A stretch of DNA of 64,000 nt from Escherichia coli. GTDB lineage: Bacteria; Pseudomonadota; Gammaproteobacteria; Enterobacterales; Enterobacteriaceae. Every line of letters starts with the position of its first letter. The first letter of the stretch is position 1. Made by a program: the position numbers and the translations under genes. The notes under the pieces were generated by a model. The model was not told the origin of the DNA. It did not search any database and saw only the letters and a list, made by a program, of their open reading frames with translations. The stretch lies in assembly GCF_051903065.1 (NCBI RefSeq), contig NZ_CP178438.1. One strand, written 5' to 3'. Below, one piece after another: positions 12,980 to 53,365 of the stretch.

Positions 12980-12993
12980 TTTAAATCAATAAG

Positions 12994-14157
12994 TTACACA
13001 TCATTAGTACCTTCCTTATTTTTTGACTGGGACAAATTTGGGACCGATGGGTTCAGGATCGAGTCTATTTGCCGTGCGTGTTCGGTAAGGTGATTAGGTG
13101 CAAGGTGAGCATATCGACGAACCATTTCGATAGACTCCCAGCCTCCCATTTCCTGTAACACTGACAACGGGACTCCGGCTTGAACTAGCCAACTTGCCCA
13201 GGTGTGTCTCAAGTCGTGAAATCTGAAATCATCAATACCAGCCCGTCTCAGCGCCGCTTTCCAGGCTGTGTTTGCGTCATACCGCATCTTCCTTACTGTT
13301 GGCGCTTTCGTTCCGTCTGGTTTGGTACAGCTTTCCTTGTACACAAATACCCAACGGTGATGATTCCCGATTTGTTTTTTCAAAACGCGACATGCAGTAT
13401 CATTCAGCGCAACGCCAATTGCGCGGTTTGATTTACTCTCTTCCGGGTTTATCCATGCCACCCGGCGCTGCATGTCTATTTGTTGCCATTCAAGGTTGAT
13501 GATGTTCGAGCGTCTTAAGCCTGTTGCCAGTGCAAATTCAACAACAGACTTTAATGGCTCCGGACATTCATCAATCAGCCTTTGTGCTTCATGGGGCTCC
13601 AGCCAGCGGATCCGTTTATTCTTTGGTTGAGGCACTTTAATAATTGGTGCCTTATCCAGCATTTTCCATTCACGCTCTGCGGCTCTTAGTAGGGCCTTTA
13701 TAAATGAAAGATGCGTAGCCTTCGTTGCAACGGACGCTGGTTTTGGCGTGTATTCTGGAACAGGTTTCCCTTTTTTTCTGCATGCTTCTGCCCTGAGTCT
13801 CCAGTTTTCCTCATGACGCCGGTTCGTCATTTTCTGCATTGCTGAATAAATTTTTGATTCAGTAATGTCTCTTAGTTGCATTCCTGCGAAATGTTGAAGC
13901 CAGAATCCGATCCGGCTTTTGTCATCGTCCAGTGATTTTTTATGTGCTTTCTCTTCAAGCCACCTGACACACGCTTCCTCGAACGTTATATCAGGTATTT
14001 CACCAAGTTTGCTGACCCGCCATGCTTCAGCCTTTAGCTTGTCATGGAGTTCTGTCGCCTGCCTTTTGTCCTTTGTTCCAAGAGACTGTTTAAATCTTTT
14101 ACCGTTCGGCAATGTGAAACTGGCGTACCATATTTCACCTCTGCGGAAGAGTGACAT
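12994..14157 (-). CDS. int: tyrosine integrase, P22 Int-like
   Basis: 387 aa, [31 protein letters not shown]..., catalytic [15 protein letters not shown]...VRRYAHL; adjacent to thrW. Confidence 0.95.
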
Positions 14158-14387
14158 TTTCTTTCCTCTGTTATGCCATCACCCGCGCTCACCTGGACAG
14201 TATGCAGCGGAGACTGAAGAGCCGCAATGCAGGCTTGTCGTGTTGTGAGGTAAGGAGATTTATTCTTAGTGGGATCTTTGCGTGTTGCCTGAAGACGCCC
14301 TGTGCGTATCCAGTTAATGGCAGTCGGTCTGGATATCTTGAGAAAATGACAGGCCTCATCGAGTGTGAGGCTGTATGGCTCCATTAT
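14034..14387 (-). CDS. xis: excisionase
   Basis: ~117 aa from [33 protein letters not shown] (HTH); overlaps the int 5' end as in P22. Confidence 0.8.
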
Positions 14388-14689
14388 TTCACCTCTTGCT
14401 GTGACATTGTTGAAAAATGGATACCAGCTCGTTGCTGCCAGACGATCCAACCGAGAGTCATATCCCATGCCATGTATTCGTTATCGCCGTTTTTTGCTCT
14501 CCGACGATCTACTAAGTCACCGAAACGCTTTTCCATGAATAATTCATAAGCTTCGCGTTCATCTGGTTCTACTTCCAGAGATAGGAGTGCGATTTCATAA
14601 GCACGGCGCTCAATATCGTCTCGCACGTCAAGGCTGCTGATACGCTCTTTAATTTCTTTAATCAGTTCTTTGTCGGTAAAAGTGGTCAT
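14384..14689 (-). CDS. hypothetical prophage early protein
   Basis: 101 aa ORF translationally coupled within the leftward early operon. Confidence 0.5.
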   Translation of the reverse strand: MTTFTDKELIKEIKERISSLDVRDDIERRAYEIALLSLEVEPDEREAYELFMEKRFGDLVDRRRAKNGDNEYMAWDMTLGWIVWQQRAGIHFSTMSQQEVK

Positions 14690-15051
14690 TATGCTCCAGC
14701 CTCCGGTGCTTTTGGCATTACTGCCCAGTGAGTGATATTGACGTTTTCAAGGTCCCCGACCTGAAATGTCCACTGCCATTCTCCGGTTTCTTTTTGTCCC
14801 CAGGTGTACCAGAGAGAACGCCAGCCAATTAGCCAGCCTTCTCCGTTAGCATCGAATAACAAAACACTTTCATTTGCTGGTGGCAGTTCAGTTGACACTG
14901 GTATTACTTTGTTTTCCTGTGCTGCACATTTAGCTTCAAGCGCATCGAATTTACGCACTAGGTATTCAGCATCTGTTTCATTTACTTTCAGATCTCGCGG
15001 TACACATCTCCCACGAAGAAACCCTTCCATTTCGAAAACATTCATGCGCAT
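14689..15051 (-). CDS. DUF551-like prophage protein
   Basis: 120 aa, W-rich C-terminus (GWLIGWRSLWYTWGQKETGEWQW) typical of lambdoid DUF551 proteins. Confidence 0.5.
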   Translation of the reverse strand: MRMNVFEMEGFLRGRCVPRDLKVNETDAEYLVRKFDALEAKCAAQENKVIPVSTELPPANESVLLFDANGEGWLIGWRSLWYTWGQKETGEWQWTFQVGDLENVNITHWAVMPKAPEAGA

Positions 15052-15578
15052 TTGCGTAACTCCGATAACTCGTTAAAGCGTTCCATAAACATCCCGTAGG
15101 CATGGCCCGGTGCCAGTGGAATCACGTTGAACATCTCTGTTGCCGGGATACCTTCCAGTACAGGCCAGAAAGAGCCATCATCAAGCCCGAGATCGCGGCG
15201 TTCGGTTGCCAGCATGATGAGATCGGCATATTTCACGGGCGTACTCATAACTGGGGGTAACCCGTATTTCTCACGGATTACGGCGTCTATTTTTTCTTCC
15301 ATTTGTTTATAGTCAGGAAGAAGGCGTTTCAGTGGTGCGGGAATGTCCTGGCAATACGCTTCTGTTGCATCATGCATTAACGCTTCAAAAGCAAATTCCT
15401 GCGGCACCAGCTGGCTGCAAAGAACCGCATGTTGGGCGACGCTGTAGAAGTGCGAAAGATGACCGGCAAAGCGACAGATATTTGAAAGGGAAACCGCGAT
15501 ATCGTTAATATCGATGTCGTCTTTATTTATCCTGTCATAATAAAAATGCTTCCCGGAAAAAGTTTTAATAAATGACAT
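15042..15578 (-). CDS. HD-domain phosphohydrolase (YfdR-like 5'-deoxynucleotidase)
   Basis: MSFIKTFSGKHFYYDRINKDD..., HD motif context AQHAVLCSQL...MHDATEAY. Confidence 0.7.
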   Translation of the reverse strand: MSFIKTFSGKHFYYDRINKDDIDINDIAVSLSNICRFAGHLSHFYSVAQHAVLCSQLVPQEFAFEALMHDATEAYCQDIPAPLKRLLPDYKQMEEKIDAVIREKYGLPPVMSTPVKYADLIMLATERRDLGLDDGSFWPVLEGIPATEMFNVIPLAPGHAYGMFMERFNELSELRKCA

Positions 15579-15705
15579 TTTGTTCTCCACGTATATGCGC
15601 TGCACCGCGCTGAATTCTGGTAAAAAGAATCCCTCACCATCCGGCGATTATTGAGTAAATTACGTTTCCATAAATGCCCCCGCAGGGGCATTTGCAGTAA
15701 TGAAA

Positions 15706-16530
15706 TCAGGCGGTGAAAGTACCAATAAAGGTTTCTACTTTGCTGTCCTTGAATTTCTCAACAAGCAGATCACGAAATTCGTTAGCCATTTCTTCCTGCA
15801 CCGCCTCCAGCTGAATAATGCGCAGAACCAGTACAGGACGATCGCCAGTGATAATACTGAGGCGTAATTTAAACGGACGTTCTTTCAGACCTTCAAACGG
15901 AACGCATTTAAATTCAAATGCCACTGGCATAATGTCTTTGGTCTTCGCTTCGACAGACTCCATCAGGGAGCGTTTGCCGCTGAAGTCATTATCTTCAAAA
16001 TCAGCGGTCTGGTTTGCTTCAATCGTGATTTTACGGACAGCCGCAGCCGCTTTTGTTGCCTGAATAGCGTCACCATTAGCATCAAAGCCCACAAGATAGT
16101 CGGCCCAGTCTTCAATCCATTCTGCTAGTGACTTCTGGGAGTTACGCTCGCCGTTAACAGACAACAGAGCAGAGAACGGTGCTGTCTTTTTCAGTTTGAG
16201 TGTGGCGGTGTTATCTGCGTGACCTGGTTCATCAATAGTACCCAGGTTAAGCACACTGACGGCACGCATATTATCAGCATCGATAAAGCAGCGGGTGCCT
16301 TCATCTGCAAGATCTTTAGAATAACGGGTAAAGTCATCGATGCTGGCAGTGGAAAGCGCACCACGGAAACGGAAGCGATTTAAATTAAATTTTTCCAGAT
16401 CATGAATGCGGAAATTCTCAGGCAATGCCACAGCATCGGCACCAATCTTACTGATAATTTCATTAACACCCTGAGCAGAAATAAGGGCATGGATTTGATT
16501 AATTGCGGTTGCGTCTAAGTTCTGAGACAT
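15706..16530 (-). CDS. DUF2303 family protein (YfdQ-like)
   Basis: 274 aa; resemblance to CPS-53 YfdQ and position next to the YfdR-like gene. Confidence 0.6.
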
Positions 16531-16595
16531 AATAAGTCCTCACTATATAAAGATATTCAGTGATGAGATAAATAATCAGTTAATTAAAAACGATA

Positions 16596-16958
16596 TTAAC
16601 GACCTGCTGCGCGGAGTTTTCCGTCAGGTTCACCGGCAAGAGTCAGTAACTGTCCCTGGTCTTCCTGCAGAATAGTCAGGCGACCACCGCGATTGACATA
16701 CATCGGCGTTTCGGTGGTGTCTTCTTCGGAAATTTTCCCGCGGTTAGTCGGGCGAACATATGAGAGTTTGTGTTTGATTTTCACTCGGTTCTCATCAAAC
16801 GGTTCGATTTCCAGGTTGAGCGAGACCTTACCTTTGGTTTTCGTGTTCATCACACCGGAAGCGACTTCACTGAGAACTGCGCCGATTTTGGTTTCAAATA
16901 CGCCGCCGTCCAGCTCCCCGATAAATGCCTGCACATCAGTACTGCGTTCGCTAGCCAT
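16596..16958 (-). CDS. hypothetical prophage protein (YfdP-like by position)
   Basis: 120 aa from MASERSTDVQAF... with AGGAG RBS 8 nt upstream; the longer track ORF is a 5' extension. Confidence 0.5.
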   Translation of the reverse strand: MASERSTDVQAFIGELDGGVFETKIGAVLSEVASGVMNTKTKGKVSLNLEIEPFDENRVKIKHKLSYVRPTNRGKISEEDTTETPMYVNRGGRLTILQEDQGQLLTLAGEPDGKLRAAGR

Positions 16959-17090
16959 TTTGCTGCTCCTCATCATATCGACCCTGCAAGGTCGGTTAGT
17001 TTCTCCACAAAACAGAGAAGAACACCTGCGGTGACTGCCGCCCGGATGGATTGGGTTATGAGCCCGTCGTCCGGTGATGCTCTTCTCTGT

Positions 17091-17139
17091 TTTGTAAAAA
17101 GGACGGTACCAGCCGGAAGCAAGAGTACAAGCTGGTACC
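17091..17139 (-). terminator. intrinsic terminator (tL-like) upstream of the leftward early genes
   Basis: 9-bp stem GGTACCAGC/GCTGGTACC followed on the minus strand by a T-run. Confidence 0.5.
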
Positions 17140-17426
17140 GCCAAGACTACACACAGCATAAAGTTGTGGTGCCGGGTGCCTCCCGGTGCCTGGCGAAGGT
17201 TGCACACCAGGCGGGTGGGTATCCACAGAAGGTCGACTGTCAGCCTCAACCTTAACCCGCGTGCGCTGAGCCGCATTCACCACAACGCTAAGGATTCTCT
17301 CTGGTTGAAAATACTTAGCTGTTATGTGCCTGCTTTTAGCCACATCAGGCGAGGTGGACCTAGTTATTCCCCAACAACAAGGATTCGGTTAATCTGGTTA
17401 TCCCCAACAACGCAAAAGGAAAAGAA

Positions 17427-17861
17427 ATGTCCGGTAATATCTATACGCTGTACAAATCCCACTGTGAAAATGTTGGAAAGTATCGGGGCATTGAAATCAG
17501 TGGGGTAGTGTCATCAGTCGAAATAAGCAAAGTTGAATCAAGGGCAACATTACTTACTCTTTTGGACCTTGTCTTACATGAGCACCGGAAGAAATTCGGC
17601 ACTCCCTATAATCAGTTGAATGGGAAAAAGGCTCTGGTTCACCTTATTCTGATGAAGCATCACTGGATGCCAAAACAGATTAATGAGATGAAATTTGATG
17701 AACTTCTTCTTTCAATTCAGGATGAACTCACACTTGATAAAATAAGCGTAACCGCCCAGAAATTTTTAGATTATCGAGACTGGAGATCACAAATTCATCA
17801 CTTTGATGATTTTGACGAAAATGAATGGGATCCTAATTTGTCTGCACAATATCTAAAGTAA
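17427..17861 (+). CDS. hypothetical AT-rich moron protein in immunity region
   Basis: 144 aa ORF on the opposite strand to flanking early genes; preceded by two GTTAT(T)CCCCAACAAC direct repeats. Confidence 0.55.
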   Translation: MSGNIYTLYKSHCENVGKYRGIEISGVVSSVEISKVESRATLLTLLDLVLHEHRKKFGTPYNQLNGKKALVHLILMKHHWMPKQINEMKFDELLLSIQDELTLDKISVTAQKFLDYRDWRSQIHHFDDFDENEWDPNLSAQYLK

Positions 17862-18039
17862 CATCCTGTGATAAAACCGTGATTTCCTGATCCAGTTTTT
17901 TTAAGGAGTCTATTGTTTCCTGTCGATAAGACAGCACTTCACGAAGCTGGTTTATAGCTGCCAGCTTCTTTGTCATCCACTCATAAATTTCCTCATCTGT
18001 GTAGCCAGGCGCGACGATTTTGGGTTCTGTTTTGTGCAT
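17833..18039 (-). CDS. small hypothetical protein, first gene of leftward (pL-like) transcript
   Basis: 68 aa from MHKTEPKIV with GAGGAG RBS 7 nt upstream; overlaps the 3' end of the convergent gene. Confidence 0.45.
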   Translation of the reverse strand: MHKTEPKIVAPGYTDEEIYEWMTKKLAAINQLREVLSYRQETIDSLKKLDQEITVLSQDVTLDIVQTN

Positions 18040-18098
18040 TTCACATCTCCTCAAGTTATCAGTTACTTGTTGATGGGGACCAGATTGTTAAAGAGCTA

Positions 18099-18122
18099 AG
18101 CGTCCTGTAGGGCGCTTTTTTG
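18099..18122 (+). terminator. intrinsic terminator
   Basis: AGCGTCC-loop-GGGCGCT hairpin followed by TTTTTT. Confidence 0.5.
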
Positions 18123-18196
18123 TTGCTAACGAATCATCCTGGACTTCATATGCTCCAGGCGGCTACTTCGTGGGCGTCCTGCCTGTTCGTTGTTTC

Positions 18197-18234
18197 GCTT
18201 GGGTACATTATGTATCTCAAAGGTACATTGTCAA
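18197..18234. promoter_or_regulatory. OL-like operator/promoter region
   Basis: GGTACA half-sites (CTTGGGTACATT...AAGGTACATTGTCAAG) related to the OR palindromes. Confidence 0.45.
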
Positions 18235-18235
18235 G

Positions 18236-18260
18236 TATAAAAAAACCTGCCGAAGCAGGT
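18236..18260 (-). terminator. intrinsic terminator downstream of cI
   Basis: ACCTGC-CGAA-GCAGGT hairpin followed by a T-run on the minus strand, just after the cI stop. Confidence 0.55.
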
Positions 18261-18273
18261 TCATAAACATTGA

Positions 18274-18948
18274 TTAGGCTTTGATTTTGTATCTTCTTGG
18301 TTTTCCTGAGAAAATCACTGTACCAATTATAGAGCAATTACCGTTGATCTTAATGTAAGGCTCAGGCCAGTTTGGGTTTAACGCTTTGAGATAACGCTGT
18401 GTCCCATCTTCTATCAACCTTTTGAAGGTGGTTTCGCCTGTATCGTGCATCAATGCAATAACGTCGTCACCGTGGCAGGCAGGTACTTCAGGATCGACAA
18501 AAATCATGTCTCCCGGGCGGTACTCATCAATCATTGAATCACCTATCACCCGCAAGATATAAGTCATTTCCCCACAGGGTACAGGGCAGGGATACGTTTC
18601 TGCTGTGCTCAAATCAACCTCAGAATATCCAACTTCTTTCCATGCTCCGGCCTGTACCCATGATATGACAGGGACTAATGTGATTTGTTTATTAGTGATT
18701 GAAACATCAGGTTTTTTTGTGATGTTCGTTGTCTGGTGTTCTTGATCGAGCCATCCGACAGGCAGGTCGAAACATTTTTCGATGTGTCGTGCCATGCTGT
18801 CACCGATATTTTTAGTAGCACCATCTCCCATAAACCTGCTGGTCTGGGTTGGCTCGCGATCAATCATAGTGGCAAAGGAAGAATTCCCGCCAACACCATC
18901 TCTCAGTTTTCTGGCGTTAGACCGCCGGATGTCATGGATTGTTTTCAT
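18274..18948 (-). CDS. cI: CI-like repressor (HTH + S24 LexA-like peptidase domain)
   Basis: 224 aa, C-terminal S24 motifs (VIGDSM...YRPGDMIFVDPE...GDDVIALMHDTGETTFKRL); divergent from cro. Confidence 0.9.
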   Translation of the reverse strand: MKTIHDIRRSNARKLRDGVGGNSSFATMIDREPTQTSRFMGDGATKNIGDSMARHIEKCFDLPVGWLDQEHQTTNITKKPDVSITNKQITLVPVISWVQAGAWKEVGYSEVDLSTAETYPCPVPCGEMTYILRVIGDSMIDEYRPGDMIFVDPEVPACHGDDVIALMHDTGETTFKRLIEDGTQRYLKALNPNWPEPYIKINGNCSIIGTVIFSGKPRRYKIKA

Positions 18949-18963
18949 AACGAAATTAAAACC

Positions 18964-19033
18964 CTTGTACCGTTAAGGTACAAGTATCTTGAAGGTTCAT
19001 TTCAATCATGTAATATGTACACCGGAGGTACAT
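18964..19033. promoter_or_regulatory. OR operator/promoter region (pRM/pR)
   Basis: Perfect palindrome CTTGTACCGTTAAGGTACAAG (18964-18984) and imperfect ATGTACACCGGAGGTACAT (19015-19033) between cI and cro. Confidence 0.7.
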
Positions 19034-19038
19034 ATTGT

Positions 19039-19239
19039 ATGAAAGCGTATTGGGACTCTTTAACCAAAGAACAGCAGGGCGAGTTGGCCGGAAAAGTTGG
19101 CTCAACACCTGGCTACTTACGGCTGGTTTTCAATGGCTATAAAAAAGCCAGTTTTGTGCTGGCTAAAAAACTTGAGCAATGCACGTCAGGTGCAATTACG
19201 AAATCTGACTTAAGACCGGATATCTATCCGAAAGATTAG
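19039..19239 (+). CDS. cro: Cro-like repressor
   Basis: 66 aa MKAYWDSLTKEQQGELAGKVGSTPGYLRLVFNG..., GGAGG RBS; the track ORF 18736-19239 is a 5' extension. Confidence 0.8.
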   Translation: MKAYWDSLTKEQQGELAGKVGSTPGYLRLVFNGYKKASFVLAKKLEQCTSGAITKSDLRPDIYPKD

Positions 19240-19270
19240 CAGAACACTTTCAATTTTTAACCACAGAACG

Positions 19271-19834
19271 ATGAGGCTAACCGTGGGTAAGCATCACTGG
19301 AAAATAGAAAAACAGCCTGAGTGGTACGTGAAAGCTGTCAGAAAAACTATCGCGGCGTTGCCGGGTGGTTACGCTGAAGCGGCTGACTGGCTCGATGTAA
19401 CAGAAAACGCTTTATTCAACCGCCTTCGTGCAGATGGCGATCAGATTTTCCCGCTGGGATGGGCAATGGTTTTACAGCGTGCTGGTGGCACTCACTTCAT
19501 TGCTGATGCTGTGGCGCAGTCTGCAAATGGCGTCTTTGTGTCTCTTCCTGACGTCGAGGATGTGGACAACGCCGATATCAACCAACGCCTGCTGGAAGTC
19601 ATTGAACAGATCGGCAGTTATTCAAAACAGATTCGTTCAGCAATTGAAGACGGTGTAGTGGAACCGCATGAGAAGACAGCAATTAACGATGAGCTGTACC
19701 TCTCAATTTCGAAGCTGCAGGAGCATGCAGCACTGGTCTACAAAATCTTTTGCGTTTCAGAAAGTAGTGACGCCCGCGAGTGTGCAGCTCCGGGCGCCGT
19801 GGCGTGTCGTGACTGTGGAGAAACTAACGCATGA
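19271..19834 (+). CDS. CII-like regulatory protein (CP76/YdaT-like), tentative
   Basis: 187 aa, position immediately after cro; family assignment from memory only. Confidence 0.45.
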
Positions 19835-20169
19835 ACAGTTTAACAACACACTACCGTCGCTCGCAACTGATTGCGCTTCCTGTACCGGGTGGAAAAGCGA
19901 AGGTGGAGTATTGCTATGCAGTAAATGTACCAGGTGACAGGGAAATTGTAACCCACAGCTTTGCAGAGTGGGCTGTGGGTGATTTCAACCGGCAGAAGGA
20001 GACAGTCCTTTGCGACAAGTTAACCGCTGGTTCAAAGATCACTACGGAGTGCCCGTCAGAGTCATTCGTTGGGAGCCGGAAACACAACGGGTTATCTACC
20101 TCCGTGAAGGCTATGAGCATGAGTGCTTCAGCCCGCTCGAACAGTTTCGTCGTAAATTCAGGGAAATAG
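19831..20169 (+). CDS. hypothetical protein, possibly frameshifted
   Basis: 112 aa ORF; an alternative frame (19983-20189) encodes ...[55 protein letters not shown], overlapping the next start. Confidence 0.35.
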
Positions 20170-20178
20170 AGGTCGGTC

Positions 20179-21120
20179 ATGAGCACTAAATTAACCGGCT
20201 ATGTATGGGATGGTTGCGCTGCGTCAGGCATGAAATTATCCAGCGTGGCAATTATGGCCCGCCTGGCTGATTTCAGTAATGACGAAGGTGTGTGCTGGCC
20301 ATCAATTGAAACCATTGCCCGTCAGATTGGCGCGGGGATGAGTACCGTCAGAACGGCTATCGCACGGCTGGAAGCAGAAGGCTGGTTAACGCGTAAGGCG
20401 CGTCGCCAGGGTAACCGCAATGCGTCGAATGTTTATCAGCTTAACGTTGCGAAGCTTCAGGCAGCGGCATTTTCTCAACTGTCAGATTCTGACCCGTCAA
20501 AATCTGACGCATCAAAATCTGACCCGTCAAAATTTGATGCGTCGAAATCTGGCAAAAAAGCGGGTTTTCACCCGTCAGAATCTGGCGGGGATCCGTCAGT
20601 AAAATCAAAACATGATCCGTCAGATAAAAAAACTTCTCGTCCGGACGCTTCGCAACCGGACACGCAGACGGCTGAACAGGAGTTTTTAACTCGCCATCCT
20701 GATGCGGTTGTATTCAGCCCTAAAAAGCGCCAGTGGGGAACGCAGGATGATTTGACCTGCGCACAGTGGCTCTGGAAAAAAATCATCGCCCTGTACGAGC
20801 TGGCCGCCGAATGTGACGGCGAGGTGGTTCGTCCCAAAGAACCGAACTGGACAGCCTGGGCAAACGAAATTCGCCTGATGTGTGTGCAGGATGGTCGTAC
20901 TCACAAACAAATCTGCGAGATGTACAGCCGCGTCAGCCGCGATCCGTTCTGGTGCCGTAACGTGCTCAGCCCGTCGAAGCTGCGGGAAAAATGGGATGAG
21001 CTTTCCCTGCGCTTATCGCCGTCCATCAGCACATACACAGAAAAACGCGAAGACCCGTATTTCAAATCCAGTTACGACAACGTGGACTACAGCCAGATCC
21101 CGGCAGGATTCAGGGGGTGA
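20179..21120 (+). CDS. replication initiation protein (O-like)
   Basis: 313 aa, N-terminal HTH region, low-complexity SKSD repeats, conserved C-terminal domain; iterons within the gene. Confidence 0.75.
   Translation: MSTKLTGYVWDGCAASGMKLSSVAIMARLADFSNDEGVCWPSIETIARQIGAGMSTVRTAIARLEAEGWLTRKARRQGNRNASNVYQLNVAKLQAAAFSQLSDSDPSKSDASKSDPSKFDASKSGKKAGFHPSESGGDPSVKSKHDPSDKKTSRPDASQPDTQTAEQEFLTRHPDAVVFSPKKRQWGTQDDLTCAQWLWKKIIALYELAAECDGEVVRPKEPNWTAWANEIRLMCVQDGRTHKQICEMYSRVSRDPFWCRNVLSPSKLREKWDELSLRLSPSISTYTEKREDPYFKSSYDNVDYSQIPAGFRG
20470..20600 (+). repeat. origin iterons within the replication gene
   Basis: Tandem CCGTCAAAATCTGA-like repeats (at least five) followed by an A-rich stretch. Confidence 0.65.
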
Positions 21121-21611
21121 GCATGAGTCTTTTGAATGAAGTTCAGAAATTCATTGAAGCCCATCCGGGCTGTACTTCCGGAGACATTGCGGATGCTTTT
21201 GCAGGTTACTCACGGCAGCGCGTTCTGCAGTCAGCAAGCAAGTTACGTCAGAGTGGGCGTGTGGCTCACCGTTGTGAAGGGGATACACGCAGACATTTCC
21301 CGCGCCTGACTGAGAGAGCGCAGGAGCCGGAACCACAACCAGTTCGTGAAACCAGACCTGTGCGCAATTTCTATGTCGGCACTAACGATCCACGGGTGAT
21401 TTTGTGCCTGACCCGCCAGGCTGAAGAACTGGAGTCCAGGGGCCTATACCGTCGTGCTGCAACGGTGTGGATGGCGGCATTCCGTGAAAGCCACTCCCAG
21501 CCAGAACGAAACAATTTTCTGGCGCGTCGTGAGCAGTGCTTACAGAAAAGCAGCAAGCGCGCTGCATCGGGTGAAGAGTGGTATCTGTCAGGGAATTACG
21601 TGGGGGCGTAA
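21117..21611 (+). CDS. PerC-like transcriptional regulator, tentative
   Basis: 164 aa; motif GLYRRAATVWMAAF resembles the PerC/Pch family as I recall it. Confidence 0.4.
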   Translation: MSMSLLNEVQKFIEAHPGCTSGDIADAFAGYSRQRVLQSASKLRQSGRVAHRCEGDTRRHFPRLTERAQEPEPQPVRETRPVRNFYVGTNDPRVILCLTRQAEELESRGLYRRAATVWMAAFRESHSQPERNNFLARREQCLQKSSKRAASGEEWYLSGNYVGA

Positions 21612-22323: not shown

Positions 22324-22342
22324 TTAAGAGGAGAAACGAAGT

Positions 22343-23140: not shown

Positions 23141-23141
23141 G

Positions 23142-24137: not shown

Positions 24138-24151
24138 TTTGGTGGAGAAAG

Positions 24152-24510: not shown

Positions 24511-24529
24511 ACGGCCATATTGGCCGTCA
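24511..24529. terminator. bidirectional hairpin between Q and cargo operon
   Basis: Perfect palindrome GACGGCCA-TAT-TGGCCGTC. Confidence 0.55.
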
Positions 24530-45059: not shown

Positions 45060-45484
45060 TGGAACTGTGGCTGACGGTGAACGGTAAACGCACCTGCGCC
45101 AGCGCACCGCTGGATCCGCTGACCCGTGCCGTGGTGATTTCCATGTTCACCTGGCGGCGGGCTGAACCTGATGACAATGCCGACGTCCCGATGGGATGGT
45201 GGGGGGATACCTGGCCTGCGGTACAGAATGACCGTTACGGCTCCCGACTGTGGCTGCTTCAGCGCAGCAAACTGACCAATCAGCTGGTGCAGACGGTAAG
45301 GGGGTATATCCGCGAATGCCTGCAATGGATGATTGATGATGGCGTGGTGTCCCGTATTGATCTGGATATCCGCCGCACCGGGATTAATGAACTGGGTAAC
45401 AGTATCACTCTCTGGCGTCGTGACGGACCGGTAATGATTTCTTTTGATGATCTGTGGAGTGCGATAACGCATGGCGGACAGTGA
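45056..45484 (+). CDS. baseplate protein (Mu gp46 / gpW-like)
   Basis: 142 aa. Confidence 0.6.
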   Translation: MMELWLTVNGKRTCASAPLDPLTRAVVISMFTWRRAEPDDNADVPMGWWGDTWPAVQNDRYGSRLWLLQRSKLTNQLVQTVRGYIRECLQWMIDDGVVSRIDLDIRRTGINELGNSITLWRRDGPVMISFDDLWSAITHGGQ

Positions 45485-46529
45485 ATTTCAGCGTCCGACG
45501 CTGGCAGAAAATATCAGTATGCTCCGTAACGATTTATTCGCCAGGCTGGATGTCAGCGACACGCTCCGGCGCATGGATGAAGACGTGCGGGCAATGGTGT
45601 ATGCGGCGGCGCTGCATACGGTTTACGGGTACATCGATTATCTGGCAATGAACATGCTGCCTGACCTGTGCGATGAGTCCTGGCTGGCGCGACATGCTGC
45701 GATGAAACGGTGTCCGCGCAAGGGGGCCACGGCTGCCAGCGGGTATATGCGCTGGGAAGGTGTCAGCGATGGCCTGAAGGTGACCGCCGGGAGTGTTATT
45801 CAGCGCGATGACCTGGTGCAGTACACGGCAACTGCCGATGCAACCAGCTCCGGTGGTGTCCTGCGCGTGCCGATCGCCTGCTCAAGTGCAGGCGCGGTCG
45901 GTAACGCTGACGACGGTACGGCATTAATCCTGGTCACGCCGGTGAATGGTCTGCCGTCTTCCGGTGTGGCTGACACCCTGACAGGCGGATTTGATACTGA
46001 AGAGCTGGAAACGTGGCGCGCCCGCGTCATTGAGCGGTATTACTGGACGCCGCAGGGCGGGGCTGACGGGGACTATGTCGTCTGGGCTAAAGAAGTGCCC
46101 GGCATTACCCGCGCATGGACATACCGTCACTGGATGGGAACGGGGACTGTCGGTGTGATGATTGCCAGCAGCGACCTGATTAATCCCATTCCGGAAGAAT
46201 CAACGGAAACGGCGGCAAGACAACATATCGGGCCACTGGCTCCGGTGGCAGGCTCTGATTTGTATGTGTTCAGGCCGGTGGCACATACGGTGGATTTTCA
46301 TATCCGCGTTACGCCGGATACACCGGAAATACGAGCCGCCATCACCGCGGAGTTGCGTTCGTTCCTGTTGCGTGATGGTTATCCGCAGGGAGAACTGAAG
46401 GTATCGCGTATCAGTGAGGCGATTTCCGGTGCAAACGGGGAATACAGCCATCAGTTGCTTGCACCGGCGGACAATATCTCCATTGCAAAAAATGAACTGG
46501 CGGTTCTGGGGACGATTTCATGGACGTGA
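45471..46529 (+). CDS. baseplate J-like protein
   Basis: 352 aa. Confidence 0.7.
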
Positions 46530-47104
46530 CAAACGATGATTACATCCGTCTGTTGTCGGCACTGTTGCCCCCCGGTCCGGCGTGGTCAGCCAGCGATCCG
46601 GCGATTGCCGGTGCGGCACCTTCATTAACTCGTGCTCATCAGCGTGCGGATGCCCTGATGCGGGAGCTGGATCCGCGCACCACCACTGAACTGATAAACC
46701 GCTGGGAGCGTCTGTGCGGTCTGCCGGATGAATGTATTCCCGCAGGGACACAGACCCTTCGCCAGCGTCAGCAACGGCTGGATGCGAAGGTTAACCTGGC
46801 GGGCGGCATCAACGAGGATTTTTATCTTGCACAGCTTGCTGTCCTGGGCAGACCAGATGCCACCATCACGCGATACGACAAAAGCACGTTCACCTGCTCA
46901 TCGGCCTGTACTGACGCTGTGAACGCGCCTGAATGGCGGTATTACTGGCAGGTCAACATGCCAGCCGCCACCAACACCACCTGGATGACATGTGGCGATC
47001 CCTGTGATTCCGCACTGCGTATCTGGGGCGACACAGTTGTCGAATGTGTGCTTAACAAACTCTGCCCGTCGCATACCTACGTAATTTTTAAATATCCGGA
47101 GTAA
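46520..47104 (+). CDS. DUF2313 / YmfQ-like tail protein
   Basis: 194 aa, position before the tail fibre. Confidence 0.6.
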
Positions 47105-47107
47105 TCC

Positions 47108-47833
47108 ATGCATCGTATAGACACGAAAACCGCGCAGAAGGATAAGTTCGGCGCGGGTAAGAACGGTTTTACCCGTGGTAACCCCCAGACCGGCACGCCT
47201 GCCACCGATCTGGATGATGACTACTTTGACATGTTGCAGGAGGAGCTTTGCAGCGTTGTGGAGGCGTCCGGTGCCAGCCTGGAGAAGGGGCGGCACGACC
47301 AGCTACTTACCGCGCTTCGCGCGCTGCTGTTAAGCCGCAAGAATCCGTTTGGCGATATCAAATCGGATGGCACGGTGAAAACGGCTCTCGAAAACCTTGG
47401 TTTGGGGGAAGGCTCTGCGTTGCCCGTTGGTGTACCTGTTCCGTGGCCCTCAGCCACACCGCCAGCAGGGTGGCTGAAATGTAACGGCGCAGCATTTTCT
47501 TCTGAAATGTACCCCAATCTGGCAAAGGCTTATCCTACAAATAAATTACCGGATTTACGCGGTGAGTTTATTCGTGGCTGGGATGATGGGCGTGGAGTGG
47601 ATAGTGGGCGCGCGTTATTATCAACTCAAACAGATGAATTTAAATCACATAGTCATTATTTCGAAAGAACATGGGCACAAACTGGATTTGATACAACAGG
47701 TGGATATTATCTTTTAGCCGCTGATGTTTCTGGCTCAGTAAATCAACAGAGATCCGATAGCACTAACTCGGTGGGGGGGAGAGAATCTCGCCCTCGTAAT
47801 ATTGCATTTAACTATATTGTGAGAGCTGTGTAA
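47108..47833 (+). CDS. tail fibre protein (constant N-terminus plus invertible C-terminal part)
   Basis: 241 aa; inversion crossover site lies within the gene at ~47388-47412. Confidence 0.75.
47388..47412. repeat. inversion crossover site (gix/pix-like), left
   Basis: AAACCTTGGTTTGGG core, inverted relative to the site at 49295-49319. Confidence 0.65.
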
Positions 47834-48435
47834 TGGATAATGCTGTATTAAATAGCGAACATATTGCTACGAAGGCTGGAAATGTTACTGTTTATAACTT
47901 TGACGGTGAAACGCGAGAGTATATTTCCCCATCTATTGAATATATTGCCGTTGGTGTCGGTATTCCGGCATATTCATGTTTAGATGCTCCTGCCACACGT
48001 AAAGATGGTTATGCAATTTGCCGTTCTGCAGATTTTAACTCATGGGAATATGTGCCAGACCATCGCGGTGAAACGGTCTATAGCACTGAAACAGGAGAAT
48101 CAAAAGAAATCACAGCTCCGGGTGATTACCCTGAAAATACAACCACTATCTCCCCATTAACGCCATACGATAAATGGGATGGTGAGAAATGGGTGACCGA
48201 TACTGAAGCACAGCATAGCGCCGCAGTAGACGCGGCAGAAGCACAGCGCCAGTCACTGATTAATGCTGCAATGGCTTCCATTAGTCTGATTCAGCTGAAA
48301 TTACAGGCCGGACGGAAACTGACGCAGGCAGAAACAACCCGGCTTAACGCTGTGCTGGATTACATTGACGCGGTGATGGCAACAGATACCAGCACCGCGC
48401 CGAATGTCATCTGGCCTGAACTGCCGGAGGCGTAG
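47833..48435 (+). CDS. tail fibre assembly protein
   Basis: 200 aa, conserved C-terminus ...IDAVMATDTSTAPNVIWPELPEA. Confidence 0.8.
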   Translation: MDNAVLNSEHIATKAGNVTVYNFDGETREYISPSIEYIAVGVGIPAYSCLDAPATRKDGYAICRSADFNSWEYVPDHRGETVYSTETGESKEITAPGDYPENTTTISPLTPYDKWDGEKWVTDTEAQHSAAVDAAEAQRQSLINAAMASISLIQLKLQAGRKLTQAETTRLNAVLDYIDAVMATDTSTAPNVIWPELPEA

Positions 48436-48850
48436 GCCATTCAATATCTGGAGCACTGGAGGGATCAACCAGTTCCAGTGCGTCCAGATAATCCAGCCAT
48501 AAATTATATTGTTCCAGCTCGTCACCTTTCAGACGACCAATAGCAGCTTTGCCAGGCCACTGATGGGTATTGATGTAGGTATTGGCTTCTGAAACCAAAG
48601 ATATTTTTTTCATTTCAGCCGTCAATACCTCATCCTCTTTTGAAGGTGGTGGGGAATTAATCCATACTGGCCGTCCTGAACTGTCAGCGCCAATTTCTTT
48701 CCCTTCTGGATGCAGCCCAAGAAATTGCTCATATATTTCTCTGGTAATTTCAATAACATCATCAGGAAGCGTTCCCGCATCCTCATATTCTGGAAATAAT
48801 TCTTGCAGATAAAAACTTTTACTTCCGGGTGAAAAGAATACTGAGTTCAT
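48407..48850 (-). CDS. tail fibre assembly protein (alternative, inverted orientation)
   Basis: 147 aa with analogous C-terminus ...DPSSAPDIEWPTPP. Confidence 0.8.
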   Translation of the reverse strand: MNSVFFSPGSKSFYLQELFPEYEDAGTLPDDVIEITREIYEQFLGLHPEGKEIGADSSGRPVWINSPPPSKEDEVLTAEMKKISLVSEANTYINTHQWPGKAAIGRLKGDELEQYNLWLDYLDALELVDPSSAPDIEWPTPPAVQAR

Positions 48851-48852: not shown

Positions 48853-49347
48853 TTACCGTCCAATGATTAACGCTGATACGCTGGTATCTGAAGGAAAGGC
48901 TGCATTCAGTGGTTTGTCGACTTTGAACACAATCGTATTATTCCCCCTGACAGCGGCAAAAGAACAAGCCGCCGTCGCGTATGAACCTGTAATATTACTG
49001 GATACACCACCATAAGCTGTTGTTGATACCAGAGGGATAACGCCCAGCACCTTATTAGGAAATACAAAGGGCAATGTGGCTGTGGCAATATAAGACTTAT
49101 TAGAGCCTGTAATGGCATAAGCATTATCAGTCATTCCATTCATCGCCACTGGACCGCTTATACTTACAGTAACCATCTGAATGATTAGCCCGTCAGGTTG
49201 ACGAATCACAAAATTTCCATTGCCACCAGTAACCGTCCAGAAAGACATATCAGGGATTTGGTTTTCCCCGTTGCCCACATTCCGTTTTGCCGCTTCTCCC
49301 AAACCAACGTTTATGAAAATGCAGAAATAACGAGCAAATGGCATCAT
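48853..49347 (-). CDS. alternative tail fibre C-terminal segment (silent orientation)
   Basis: 164 aa Gly/Ser/Thr-rich fibre-tip-like ORF lacking its own N-terminal constant part. Confidence 0.6.
   Translation of the reverse strand: MMPFARYFCIFINVGLGEAAKRNVGNGENQIPDMSFWTVTGGNGNFVIRQPDGLIIQMVTVSISGPVAMNGMTDNAYAITGSNKSYIATATLPFVFPNKVLGVIPLVSTTAYGGVSSNITGSYATAACSFAAVRGNNTIVFKVDKPLNAAFPSDTSVSALIIGR
49295..49319. repeat. inversion crossover site (gix/pix-like), right
   Basis: CCCAAACCAACGTTT, reverse complement of the left-site core. Confidence 0.65.
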
Positions 49348-49373
49348 TCCTGCTTTTGTCAGGGAGATCTACC

Positions 49374-49928
49374 ATGCTTATTGGCTATGTACGTGTGTCA
49401 ACAAATGACCAGAACACAGATCTACAACGTAATGCGCTGAACTGTGCAGGATGCGAGCTGATTTTTGAAGACAAGATAAGCGGTACAAAGTCCGAAAGGC
49501 CGGGACTGAAAAAACTGCTCAGGACATTATCGGCAGGTGACACTCTGGTTGTCTGGAAGCTGGATCGGCTAGGGCGTAGTATGCGGCATCTGGTCATTCT
49601 GGTTGAGGAGTTGCGCGAACGTGGCGTTAATTTTCGCAGCCTGACGGATGCTATTGATACCAGCACACCGATGGGGCGTTTTTTCTTTCATGTGATGGGT
49701 GCCCTGGCTGAAATGGAACGAGAACTGATTGTTGAACGAACAAAAGCTGGACTGGAAGCTGCTCGCGCACAGGGACGAATTGGTGGACGTCGTCCCAAAC
49801 TTACACCAGAACAATGGGCGCAGGCCGGGCGATTAATTGCATCAGGCGTTCCTCGCCAGAAGGTGGCGATCATCTATGATGTTGGTATATCGACACTGTA
49901 TAAGAAGTTTCCGGTCGGAGATAAATGA
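49374..49928 (+). CDS. serine DNA invertase (Gin/Pin/Hin family)
   Basis: MLIGYVRVSTNDQNTDLQRNAL... with C-terminal HTH; adjacent to the invertible segment. Confidence 0.92.
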   Translation: MLIGYVRVSTNDQNTDLQRNALNCAGCELIFEDKISGTKSERPGLKKLLRTLSAGDTLVVWKLDRLGRSMRHLVILVEELRERGVNFRSLTDAIDTSTPMGRFFFHVMGALAEMERELIVERTKAGLEAARAQGRIGGRRPKLTPEQWAQAGRLIASGVPRQKVAIIYDVGISTLYKKFPVGDK

Positions 49929-49969
49929 AACCGTAGCACGTCGTATGCAAGATCGTGCTGCGGTTTATG
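49927..49969. repeat. hairpin-containing direct repeat, copy 1
   Basis: AAACCGTAGCACGTCGTATGCAAGATCGTGCTGCGG, imperfect copy of 50946-50987. Confidence 0.6.
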
Positions 49970-49985
49970 CTTATCACTTAAAGAC

Positions 49986-50855
<870 letters not shown>

Positions 50856-50945
50856 CTAATCCTTTGAATTTACATAGTAAAAAAGATACTTTTCCTCATA
50901 GTGTGAGCTAATTTTATGTTTCGTTTGATGATCGGACCGGTCTCA

Positions 50946-50987
50946 AAAACCGCAGGCACGTTGTATGCAAGAACGTGCTGTGGCTGG
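50946..50987. repeat. hairpin-containing direct repeat, copy 2
   Basis: AAACCGCAGGCACGTTGTATGCAAGAACGTGCTGTGG with 7-bp stem GCACGTT/AACGTGC. Confidence 0.6.
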
Positions 50988-51318
50988 CTGGTGAACTTCC
51001 AATAGTGCGAATATTGAATGATTTCTATCTGTTATAGATTTTACCGTATTTCGGCATGAATGAAACTGAATATCCTCCCACCGATTCTCCATGACTTTAC
51101 GCCACTGTCTCTAGGGCTGCTATGTGCCAGAGGCGGACGTTGTTAAAATAGAAAATATCCCAACCTTGTATGAGTCGTGCAATAATTTCGAACTTTATAC
51201 AAAGCTTTGGTTGTAAAGGTGTATAACCACAAGTGACATTAATCACATTTGTAAAGGCAAAATGCAACAAACTGAATTAGTTAATTGCGTAAATTTGAAG
51301 TTATGTTAAGGTGGTGAT

Positions 51319-51451
51319 GGTTTATGGGCAGATTTTGGGTCGCGTTTCGCGATCAGTGAAAAAAATGTCCGATAGGATTGCCTTTCAGGATCTCATGTTC
51401 CTCGCATTTCTTAAGGTTCTTGTCAAGTTTGCGTAAGAGTGCCCATAAACC
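51319..51451 (+). ncRNA. retron msr-msd non-coding RNA (a1/a2 bounded)
   Basis: 12-bp perfect inverted repeats GGTTTATGGGCA (51319-51330) and TGCCCATAAACC (51440-51451), the latter ~20 nt upstream of the RT start. Confidence 0.6.
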
Positions 51452-51470
51452 CTTTTAGAGGCGATCTAAA

Positions 51471-53306
51471 GTGAAACGACTACAATCATTAAAAGAAGCA
51501 AAAACAAAACCAGACTTGGCTAAGCTATTAGGAATCAAACCTTCAGCGTTAACATACTGCCTATATGTATTAAAACCTGAAAATCAATACACACAGTTTA
51601 AGATACCAAAAAAAAATGGCGGCGAACGGATAATAAGTGCACCTAACGGAATATTAAAGACGATACAGTCATCCTTATCAAGACTGCTTCTAGATTGCTT
51701 AGACGAAATAGTTTGCATTAAGTTTCCAGACTCAGAGTTAGCAAGGCAGAAAGCAAAAAACTCAAAAATATTAAAGTTAAAATGTTCCAACTCAGAAATC
51801 AAACAACCCTCACTGTCTCATGGATTTGAAAGAAAGCGTTCAATTATTACAAATGCAATGATGCACTTGGGGAAAAAATATGTTTTTAATATAGACTTGG
51901 ATAATTTTTTCGGCAGTTTTAACTTTGGTAGAGTCCGAGGTTTTTTCATAAAAAATAGAAACTTTGCACTCGATCCGGAAATCGCAACTGTAATTGCTAA
52001 AATTGCGTGCTACAACAATGAACTACCCCAAGGCAGCCCATGCTCCCCAGTAATCACTAATCTAATCACTCACTCGTTAGACATTAAACTGGCAGCGATT
52101 GCATCAAGAAACTCATCCACTTTTACAAGATATGCTGATGATATTACATTCTCTACGAGGAAGGGGGAGTTTCCTTCTGCTATAGCAAAAAATCAAAATG
52201 GTAAATATATCGTTAGTAAGAAAATTAGGGGCGAGATAACTCGCTCAGGTTTTATAATTAATGATGGGAAGACAAGAAATCAGTATAAAGACTCGAGGCA
52301 AGATGTAACAGGCTTAGTGGTTAATAAAAAGCCAAACACGAAAAAAGAATATTGGAGGCTTGTGCGTGCGCAATGTGACCATTTATTTAAACATGGTGAG
52401 TTCTTAGAGGTGATTGACGGCAAGGAAATAAAGGGGAATGTTAATAGCCTTGCAGGCAAACTTAACTTCATAGACCAAGTTGACCACTATAATAGATTGC
52501 GTCAAGGCGAAAAATTAAATCCAAAATATCACTTAAAAAAAGATGCCAATAAAAATGGCCATGCCAAAAAAAGGCGTTACTTACATAGTTCTAGAGAAAA
52601 AACGTTTAGTGAGTTTCTCTTCTATCGTTTATTTTATGGCAATGAATTACCAACAATTCTTACGGAAGGTAAAACTGACAATATTTATCTGAAGGCAGCA
52701 ATACATAAGTTAGCCTCATCATTCCCTAATTTGGCGGTCGCTGAAAGTCCAGGGCTCTCTTATAAGCCACGGACTAAATTTGTTAACTACAATGAGCGGA
52801 CAAAATATTTACTTGAACTTTATGGTGGTGCTGATTATTTAAAGGATTTTGTTATTCATTATAAACAACACTTTAATCGTTATAAGGCTCCCAAACCATC
52901 TAATCCAGTAATTATACTTGTTGATAATGATAGCGGACCAAAAGATCTGATTAATTACGTTAGTAAAGTTGATAATATTGGTATTTTCCCCACAGGTGTT
53001 CCAGATATCCGCGCCTCTGAGTTTGTACATATTTTTTGTAATCTTTATTTAGTGCTTACCCCTCAAGTTAAGGGATATACAGGAACTGATATAGAGCATT
53101 TTTTTAAAGATACAGATCGACTTAGACCACATAAAGGTAAGTTTTTCAATACAGTCTCTAAGCGTGATCATGATAATGATTTGAGCAAGGAATCTTTCGC
53201 AACTCATATTGTTCATGCCCACAAGCATGAAATTGATTTTAGTGGATTTACAAGCCTGTTAGAACGGTTAGTAAAAGTCATAAATCACTTTGACACTGTT
53301 AAGTAA
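51471..53306 (+). CDS. retron reverse transcriptase fused to a C-terminal Toprim domain
   Basis: RT motifs (NGGERIISAP, LPQGSPCSP, YADD in TRYADDITFS); C-terminal Toprim-like TEGKTD and VDNDSGP; 611 aa. Confidence 0.85.
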   Translation: MKRLQSLKEAKTKPDLAKLLGIKPSALTYCLYVLKPENQYTQFKIPKKNGGERIISAPNGILKTIQSSLSRLLLDCLDEIVCIKFPDSELARQKAKNSKILKLKCSNSEIKQPSLSHGFERKRSIITNAMMHLGKKYVFNIDLDNFFGSFNFGRVRGFFIKNRNFALDPEIATVIAKIACYNNELPQGSPCSPVITNLITHSLDIKLAAIASRNSSTFTRYADDITFSTRKGEFPSAIAKNQNGKYIVSKKIRGEITRSGFIINDGKTRNQYKDSRQDVTGLVVNKKPNTKKEYWRLVRAQCDHLFKHGEFLEVIDGKEIKGNVNSLAGKLNFIDQVDHYNRLRQGEKLNPKYHLKKDANKNGHAKKRRYLHSSREKTFSEFLFYRLFYGNELPTILTEGKTDNIYLKAAIHKLASSFPNLAVAESPGLSYKPRTKFVNYNERTKYLLELYGGADYLKDFVIHYKQHFNRYKAPKPSNPVIILVDNDSGPKDLINYVSKVDNIGIFPTGVPDIRASEFVHIFCNLYLVLTPQVKGYTGTDIEHFFKDTDRLRPHKGKFFNTVSKRDHDNDLSKESFATHIVHAHKHEIDFSGFTSLLERLVKVINHFDTVK

Positions 53307-53365
53307 TATTATGATGCGCACTGATTATTCCTTATTCAGCTAAAATTTCTGGTAATGACTCCAAC

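Follow-up and report, generated by a model that had tools for sequence, protein, structure and literature searches.

We analyzed a 64,000-nucleotide stretch of Escherichia coli DNA (contig NZ_CP178438.1, assembly GCF_051903065.1; hereafter the window) and conclude with high confidence that its segment 12980-53350 is one prophage, a lambdoid myovirus of the SfV/SfI/SfII/SfIV/e14 family, put into the 3' end of thrW by a P22-type integrase, and that this copy is grounded. A first-pass annotation of the window had described the segment as one mosaic prophage, and phage genes do run unbroken from the integrase open reading frame (ORF) to 53306, with a thrW attL on the left and a single att core in the window. 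The left boundary that it proposed stands, but 53350 is the last base before an insertion sequence, IS1, and is therefore the end of a remnant and not the natural end of the phage. The SfV/e14 family identity, the loss of attR, the split terL gene, and a tail-fiber segment that is flipped in a sister genome go beyond that annotation.

An SfV-like prophage at thrW

ARAGORN finds one tRNA in the window, tRNA-Thr(CGT) at 12904-12979 on the plus strand, and the integrase ORF ends 15 nt further on. This tRNA gene is thrW, and its 3' 46 nt (12934-12979) form the attL core, ATTCGTAATGCGAAGGTCGTAGGTTCGACTCCTATTATCGGCACCA, which is identical to the P22 attP core; the same 46-bp core has been published for SfI, SfII, SfV, SfX, and P22 (PMC3636060). 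The tyrosine integrase (387 amino acids; 12994-14157, minus strand) is of the P22/SfIV type, sharing 99.7% amino acid identity with SfIV Int and 89.7% with P22 Int. The excisionase (116 amino acids; 14034-14384, minus strand) matches phrog_2907 and, over 116 amino acids, has 87% identity to P22 Xis. Integrase, excisionase, and core together bear out the P22-type integration at thrW that had been proposed. Resemblance to P22 is confined to this module: P22, a podovirus, packages by the headful (pac) mechanism and has head and tailspike genes of its own type, and the prophage shows none of these features.

Between thrW and IS1 lie 40.4 kb of DNA with a mean guanine-plus-cytosine (GC) content of 0.495 (0.555 in the structural genes), and the flanks have a GC content of about 0.52. 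The chromosomal genes on either side are the E. coli thrW neighborhood, with proBA, phoE, crl, gpt, pepD, and dinB on the left and betABIT, pdeL, and the yah genes to the right of 54119. A RefSeq genome, NZ_AP045800.1 (strain 23CRST031, human feces, Ecuador), is 99.98% identical to the window. Its annotation by the Prokaryotic Genome Annotation Pipeline (PGAP) gives, on the early side, xis, early genes, cI/cro/cII-like genes, an O-like gene, Q, and holin/lysozyme/Rz; on the late side, HNH, terminase, portal, HK97 protease, capsid, sheath, tube, tape measure, and DNA circularization protein; and, on the right, a Mu-type baseplate, tail fibers, pinE, a GIY-YIG protein, and a retron reverse transcriptase (RT).

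Comparison of the whole prophage places its backbone in the SfV/e14 family, at 96-99% nucleotide identity over most of it. Against SfIV, identity is 98.8% over 12934-22305, ~96% over 29551-39606, and 97.4% over 42119-47411 (matching blocks of 9.4, 9.7, and 5.3 kb). SfI, SfII, SfV, and the e14-like phage vB_EcoM-689R6 show similar nucleotide identity to the window, and coverage by the Sf phages is 54-70%. The shared regions, at 96-99% identity, span int to replication, terminase through head, sheath, and tube, and the Mu-type baseplate, and the likeness to SfIV, SfV, SfI, and SfII extends to the thrW attB site, the 46-bp core, the integrase, the gene order, and the cos sequence. Nucleotide identity with e14 and vB_EcoM-689R6 is ~97% between the HNH and terminase genes and the end of the baseplate module. 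Much of the early region is likewise common to them and the prophage, as are a Pin invertase, its invertible fiber segment, and a defense gene in the right arm (mcrA in e14). It differs from the e14 type, which has another integrase and the icd site, in its P22/SfV-type Int at thrW. In the early region, ~9.5 kb is also ~96% identical to Stx2c-converting lambdoid phages. Membership in the lambdoid phages follows from the lambda-like module order, divergent cI and cro, an O-type initiator with a probable internal origin, Q, and a holin-endolysin-Rz/Rz1 set, all of which are present.

SfV-type phages have been characterized as contractile-tailed, thrW-integrating, lambdoid, cos-packaging mosaics that are kin of e14, phiP27, and ST64B, and e14 has icd as its integration site (PMC3636060, PMC3851460). 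Among 5,426 complete E. coli genomes, 1,080 carry the baseplate/tail module at 95-99% identity and 1,042 carry the thrW, int, and xis junction. The combination of modules is therefore not novel; it is that of the SfV family of lambdoid myoviruses, which is common. The mosaic was reportedly already described for SfV in 2002. New here is a variant of cargo and right arm within a known family, damaged by IS1.

Loss of attR and the state of terL

The IS1 copy that bounds the prophage on the right (768 bp; 53351-54118, minus strand) is 99-99.9% identical to K-12 IS1 copies. It has no 9-bp target duplication, and its flanks read AAAATTTCT and CCCTTTTCG. Searches with the 46-bp and 25-bp cores, allowing up to three mismatches, found no copy other than attL in the 64-kb window, and a direct-repeat search of the window gave no repeat marking attR. 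Strain 2014C-3075 has the same backbone at thrW and a right arm that is 99.95% identical to 49293-53350 of the window. Its homology to the window ends exactly at the IS1 end, attR (a 63-bp copy of the thrW 3' end) lies 286 bp beyond, and yagU, ykgJ, and the ecp operon come after attR. Directly 3' of IS1, the window has 176 bp that in other lineages edge the fimX/hyx island beside betA; K-12-homologous sequence resumes 105 bp from betA, and the chromosome replaced by IS1 runs to 264 bp from betA.

The simplest reading of these junctions is an IS1-associated deletion, by adjacent deletion or IS1-IS1 recombination, that would have taken ~285 bp of phage DNA, attR, and a chromosomal block up to betA; the block measures ~28 kb by K-12 coordinates, which is an estimate only. 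Both RefSeq sister genomes have the IS1 junction, and no isolates other than two sisters from a single study showed its full extent. We rejected an assembly artifact at this point because three assemblies share the junction. With attR gone, excision by Int and Xis is impossible whatever the status of terL, and the prophage can probably no longer leave the chromosome. Induction of this copy would be abortive, without excision and possibly without packaging, and the element would now act mainly as a fixed carrier of defense genes or, if derepressed, as a lysis cassette.

The terminase large subunit gene, terL, is read in two frames (30518-31225 and 31225-32250, plus strand) that split at a run of G's near 31203, where the window has G4 and AP045800, SfIV, and vB_EcoM-689R6 have G5. 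The window differs from AP045800 by two substitutions and seven single-base indels, at 17100, 21885, 21954, 30473, 31203, 35557, 41005, 46568, and 49566. All nine positions are inside the prophage, and 23 kb of flanks show zero differences; as the prophage makes up 63% of the window, the chance of all nine falling inside it is ~0.016. In AP045800, frameshifts affect terS, rusA, the umuD-like gene, and ymfQ, each of which is intact in the window. Because every indel is in a homopolymer run, the indels are equally likely to be long-read errors or real mutations. These genomes also contain a second place matching the tail module, and this, together with the clustering of the differences, suggests either mis-polishing through cross-mapping or gene conversion between two related prophages.

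Several points weigh against our reading of the element as a grounded SfV-family prophage. The terL frameshift is a single-base homopolymer difference and may be a sequencing error. A virion with an isometric head and a contractile tail, its inducibility, and the failure of this copy to excise are predictions from gene content, and the lack of attR and the broken terL argue against phage production by this copy. Also absent is the gtr cassette, by which the serotype-converting phages of Shigella are defined: unlike SfIV, SfV, SfI, and SfII, the prophage has no gtrA, gtrB, or type-specific cassette beside att and carries an invertible fiber segment, pin, PD-T4-3, and a retron instead, and it differs from them as well in its Q-holin and post-lysis cargo, its tape-measure allele, and its lack of attR. 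The element is of the SfV phage lineage, yet it is not a serotype-converting phage.

The proposal of induction and electron microscopy in the first-pass annotation implied an intact, inducible temperate phage. In its favor, every structural, lysis, and regulatory ORF other than terL is full length, phages with 96-99% identity to the backbone, SfI and SfIV among them, have been induced and imaged (PMC3636060, PMC3851460), and a Pin-mediated inversion has occurred recently. We nevertheless consider an intact phage very unlikely, given that the 64-kb window holds no attR, that IS1 occupies the place of the last 285 bp and attR, and that terL is split in this sequence.

The grounded prophage might instead be maintained as a domesticated unit, that is, as a defense island and possibly a tailocin-like producer with a switchable fiber. 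It does carry three recognized or candidate defense systems, and its lysis and tail genes are intact and its fiber switch active despite the loss of attR. However, the right arm is 99.95% identical to that of the intact relative and the full IS1 junction is limited to the two sister isolates, which indicates an event so recent that selection could not yet have left its mark, and no tailocin-specific features were found in the element. Domestication therefore appears highly improbable.

Least credible of all, to a degree that we regard as negligible, is that two adjacent elements are present, a prophage ending after the fibers and a separate pin/PD-T4-3/retron island. In favor of such an island, 49293-53350 is AT-rich and 99.95% identical to 2014C-3075, compared with ~97% for the rest of the prophage, and in strain EP91B (NZ_CP149810.1, 1-10408) the same right arm of pin, PD-T4-3, retron, and attR(thrW) (window 49295-53350; not aligned base by base) lies behind a lambda-type siphovirus tail (J, Lom, Stf), so that the block moves between phage backbones as a unit. 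The block lacks an integrase, however, and Pin, an invertase, has its sites in the tail-fiber gene. In both 2014C-3075 and EP91B the thrW-type attR is immediately to the right of the retron and not between the fibers and pin, and where the block lies, Sf phages have gtr and e14-like phages have mcrA. The block is accordingly part of the phage, a right-arm module that recombines between myovirus and siphovirus lambdoid backbones. Two neighboring elements with att sites of their own, the finding that would have refuted the first-pass annotation, do not emerge from the att sites either: the window has one core, and the attL and attR of the intact relative enclose pin, PD-T4-3, and the retron.

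Cargo genes of the right arm and other variable slots

The first-pass annotation had placed AT-rich accessory genes at several sites, and the cargo indeed has a GC content of 0.352-0.424 against the prophage mean of 0.495 (immunity-region gene, 0.379; Q-holin gap, 0.366; post-lysis gap, 0.364; PD-T4-3, 0.424; retron RT, 0.352). Its explanation of these sites by the modular combination holds loosely: they are the usual positions of morons (cargo genes) at the ends of transcription units, with different cargo in syntenic relatives. Comparison with SfIV, vB_EcoM-689R6, and 2014C-3075 shows four slots that vary on a constant backbone. Next to cI, the prophage has an ECs1072-family gene that is also found in SfIV and vB_EcoM-689R6, and 2014C-3075 has a different gene. 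The gap between Q and the holin gene holds a pair of genes that includes a nucleoid-associated protein (NAP) gene; in SfIV it holds IS1 and two ORFs and in 2014C-3075 two hypothetical ORFs and a methyltransferase. After Rz/Rz1, a gene for a 197-amino-acid protein is present, where SfIV has nothing and 2014C-3075 has a GrlR-family regulator. The stretch from the fibers to att contains pin, PD-T4-3, and the retron, in place of the gtr genes of the Sf phages and P22 and of a gene annotated as "5-methylcytosine-specific restriction enzyme A" (McrA-like) in vB_EcoM-689R6. The IS1 of SfIV (SfIV positions 35186-35953), in the slot of the NAP pair, is 99.7% identical to the IS1 of the window. The four moron sites at transcription-unit ends hold AT-rich genes that would benefit the host.

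Two of these genes belong to recognized antiphage systems. PD-T4-3 (49986-50759, minus strand) encodes a GIY-YIG protein of 257 amino acids that matches PADLOC model PDLC04031 (E = 2.7e-140; model positions 1-255 of 256) and Pfam LEM-3_GIY-YIG; PD-T4-3 is a single-gene defense active against Tevenvirinae (PMC12409345). The retron gene (51471-53306, plus strand) encodes a 611-amino-acid RT-Toprim fusion of type I-C and the Ec67/Eco2 family (PADLOC RT-Toprim_I-C, E = 4e-222; NCBIfam retron_Ec67_fus, 742 bits against a cutoff of 450). It aligns over its full length with the Ec67 protein (PDB 9lm3/9i2f; E = 6e-137), with roughly half of the residues identical. A candidate retron noncoding RNA (ncRNA), msr-msd, of 133 nt lies at 51319-51451 on the plus strand, with a1/a2 stems at 51319-51330 and 51440-51451 and a putative branching G at 51331; the candidate a1/a2 pair is an inverted repeat of 12 nt without mismatches, which lies 20 nt before the start of the RT gene, and the fold has an energy of -43.3 kcal/mol (z = -2.9). 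The element thus resembles Retron Ec67 (Retron-Eco2) in having a single RT-Toprim fusion that is full length to the models and a candidate msr-msd directly upstream. It differs in that only about half of the residues of the protein, on which the comparison was made, are identical; production of multicopy single-stranded DNA (msDNA) is predicted. In Eco2, phage DenB reportedly degrades the msDNA, which frees the Toprim nuclease to cut tRNAs (PMC12916289).

The pair of genes in the Q-holin gap is a candidate abortive-infection system of the PANGU type II or DS-1-like kind. It consists of a YejK-like NAP gene (25695-26729, minus strand; Pfam NA37, E = 1.5e-68) and a gene for a protein of 392-395 amino acids with two C-terminal transmembrane (TM) helices (24527-25714, minus strand; TM segments at about residues 291-320 and 353-388). 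The two ORFs overlap by 20 nt and have a GC content of 0.33-0.39. This fits the PANGU type II layout, in which a YejK-like NAP gene (Pag2A) forms a two-gene operon, with a gap under 40 bp, with a TM effector (Pag2B), and the resemblance to PANGU type II and DS-1 includes the overlapping ~390-amino-acid protein, soluble in its N-terminal part and ending in TM helices. In PANGU type II, degradation of the chromosome by phage nucleases releases the NAP sensor, and the membrane effector is then activated (bioRxiv 10.64898/2026.04.06.716658). A YejK-domain system has been validated by DefensePredictor (PMC13092281), and from the NCBIfam names we infer that DS-1 is this system. Three distant homologues keep the same pairing: one in Xenorhabdus, at the tail-fiber end of a prophage; one in Gallionella, where toxin-antitoxin genes surround it; and one in a Mu-like phage of Klebsiella, directly ahead of the holin.

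The assignments of the NAP pair and of the retron ncRNA are each opposed by part of the evidence. Against NCBIfam, the pair matches DS1_1 at E = 2.4e-15 and 56 bits (cutoff, 330) and DS1_2 at E = 1.6e-19 and 70 bits (cutoff, 315), far below the equivalog cutoffs. Pag2B is described as an acidic DNA mimic, but the N-terminal 285 amino acids of the protein here, with an isoelectric point of 6.2 and 35 acidic versus 32 basic residues, are not markedly acidic. The likeness of the pair to PANGU is one of architecture, and PADLOC gave no match for the pair, for the ECs1072-family gene, or for the 197-amino-acid gene. For the retron, no msr family was returned when the entire prophage was searched against Rfam at a permissive E value, so the ncRNA is a structural candidate. 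The only other Rfam matches in the prophage, both below threshold, were to CssrB (49906-49962) and to the small RNA STnc100 (17093-17316, minus strand; 43.4 bits, with the gathering score at 47, and E = 3e-6), the latter overlapping the leftward early region upstream of yfdP.

Judged from their characterized relatives, the retron, PD-T4-3, and the NAP pair would each act through abortive infection. For systems of all three kinds, action on T-even phages or sensing of the nucleases of these phages (EndoII, DenB) has been reported.

The two remaining morons are the ECs1072-family gene in the immunity region (17427-17861, plus strand; NCBIfam NF033230, phrog_5286; GC content, 0.379) and the 197-amino-acid post-lysis gene (28539-29132, plus strand; phrog_30030; GC content, 0.342). 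The protein encoded by the latter has only seven homologue clusters. Its AlphaFold2 model is all helical, with a predicted local distance difference test (pLDDT) score of 78 and a long first helix (residues 4-72) that is hydrophobic at its start, and a Foldseek search against the PDB gave no match with an E value below 0.3. A weak resemblance to HEPN-like four-helix proteins was set aside because there is no conserved Rx4-6H motif. It is a speculative idea, and on balance a doubtful one, that these two genes are new phage-exclusion or defense genes.

Invertible tail-fiber segment

A Gin-type G-segment had been proposed along with the Mu-like baseplate, and three observations agree with this: an invertase about 75% identical to Mu Gin, 20-bp crossover repeats, and a sister genome in which the segment is flipped. 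In the current orientation, Sv (47108-47833, plus strand) is followed by a tfa (47833-48435, plus strand); Collar and Gp53-like_C domains and two Caudo_TAP domains are found in the fiber region. An alternative fiber tip with its own assembly gene, tfa' (48407-48850) and Sv' (48853-49347), lies on the minus strand. The crossover sites at 47392-47411, inside the fiber gene, and at 49293-49312 are inverted with respect to each other, and an inverted-repeat search shows them to be 20-nt repeats, 90% complementary and 1,881 nt apart. The serine DNA invertase of the Pin/Gin family (49374-49928, plus strand) has Resolvase and HTH_7 domains and matches Mu Gin (PDB 3UJ3) at E = 9.5e-94. In the sister isolate 23CRST027 (NZ_AP045789.1, 893-2813), 47392-49312 is inverted, the breakpoints falling within the 20-bp repeats, and since this genome is nearly identical to the window, the switch has operated in this lineage. 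Inversion of the 1.9-kb segment by Pin would toggle the tip of the tail fiber and, by analogy with characterized relatives, could let the host range alternate between two fiber tips. One of the two substitutions from AP045800, at 49566 (CGG to TGG), gives Arg in the conserved Pin/Gin motif KLDRLGR in the window and Trp in AP045800, and the Pin of AP045800 may be impaired.

Regulation, replication, and lysis

Regulation, replication, and lysis are lambdoid, as had been predicted. The leftward early genes (14384-17276, minus strand), identified from PGAP, Pfam DUF2303, and PHROGs, are yfdT, yfdS, the 5'-deoxynucleotidase gene yfdR, yfdQ/DUF2303, and yfdP, and they share 98.8% nucleotide identity with SfIV. 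A CI-like repressor with an S24 (LexA-type) self-cleavage domain (18274-18948, minus strand; Pfam Peptidase_S24, E = 1.5e-26) is divergent from a Cro-like helix-turn-helix protein (19039-19239, plus strand; PGAP). These are followed on the plus strand by the CII-like YmfL (19283-19834; PGAP, NCBIfam YmfL, and phrog_101, a CII-like activator) and an O-like replication initiator (20179-21120) that has an HTH_36 domain and whose vB_EcoM-689R6 homologue is annotated as "DNA replication protein O." A direct-repeat search found six copies of TCAAAATCTGACNCG, spaced 15 bp apart, at 20467-20589 within the O-like gene, and these iterons are probably the replication origin, as in lambda.

A Nin-like region (21117-24502, including Q; plus strand) encodes PerC/YfdN, a UmuD-like protein, RusA, KilA-N, and DUF968/HNH according to PGAP and domain scans, and ends with the antiterminator Q (24155-24502, plus strand; Pfam Phage_antitermQ, E = 1.2e-44). 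The lysis cassette (27020-28344, plus strand; PGAP) comprises a lambda-family holin, a glycoside hydrolase family 24 (GH24) endolysin, Rz, and Rz1, with 90.5% nucleotide identity to the SfIV lysis genes. Given that close relatives are real phages, the LexA-like CI repressor would keep lysogeny. Upon SOS induction, the Cro, CII-like, and O-like functions together with Q antitermination would turn on the lysis, packaging, head, and tail genes; SOS-inducible cleavage of CI and Q-dependent late transcription are expected from the behavior of characterized relatives.

Packaging, head, and tail

The late region, on the plus strand as far as the baseplate, begins with an HNH endonuclease (29551-29901; PGAP), followed by the cos site TGCCCGCCCC at 29967-29976, which is the SfI cohesive-end sequence (PMC3636060). 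The SfIV genome ends map to 29959/29960, and the alignment of the window with SfIV runs through them, which places cos. Next come the terminase small subunit of the P27 family (30018-30521; Pfam Terminase_4) and the split terL. The head that had been described as HK97 type is confirmed as such by Pfam, with the portal (Phage_portal, 4e-108), S78 prohead protease (Peptidase_S78, 1e-31), and major capsid protein (PF05065; Phage_capsid, 8e-80) encoded within 32444-35533. Connector and neck proteins, a tail terminator, and a chaperone are encoded within 35583-42045 (Pfam, PGAP), and sheath (37717-39213) and tube (39213-39569) were recognized by their Pfam domains and the tape measure (39980-41812) by PGAP.

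The Mu-type baseplate (42101-47104), 97.4% identical in nucleotides to SfIV, consists of a gpN-like DNA circulation protein, the gpP/gp44 hub, gp45, gp46, gp47/J, and gp48, with the Pfam domains DNA_circ_N, GpP-like_1st, Gp44-like_2nd, GpP_4th, Phage_Mu_Gp45, GP46, Baseplate_J, and Phage_Mu_Gp48. Together with sheath and tube, these domains support the Mu-like contractile tail of the earlier description. The prophage thus resembles Mu in its tail and baseplate set (gpN/DNA circulation, P/gp44, gp45, gp46, gp47, and gp48) and in its Gin-type invertase with a G-segment-like switch, and it differs from Mu in its site-specific integration, cos packaging, and HK97-type head. Neither the annotation nor domain scans revealed MuA, MuB, or any transposase besides IS1. 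We therefore rejected a Mu-like transposable phage, as integration is by a tyrosine integrase and the tail module alone is Mu-like. During assembly, the HNH/P27-terminase cos system would fill the HK97-type head, to which the Mu-type contractile tail would be joined.

Beyond the prophage, in the left flank, lafU and a truncated flhA are left over from the Flag-2 lateral flagellar cluster within 113-2600 and 4460-5010, and the same stretches hold pseudogene fragments of an RtcB-family ligase and of a release-factor-like protein.

Significance

For basic biology, the import of this prophage is small, as the mosaic is known and roughly one in five complete E. coli genomes has it. The value of the prophage is in part one of annotation, in that the prophage can be recorded as SfV/e14-like and defective, with attR deleted by IS1. 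The strain has also lost the chromosomal block between thrW and betA, which in relatives contains yagU, ykgJ, and the ecp pilus region. For the family, the right arm is a natural example of the gtr/mcrA slot being reused for a retron and PD-T4-3. If the ECs1072-family and 197-amino-acid genes were also defensive, every cargo slot would be a defense hotspot, and the arsenal would be aimed mainly at T-even phages. As it stands, the prophage carries at least two recognized antiphage systems and one strong candidate, which could affect the susceptibility of the strain to T-even-type therapeutic phages.

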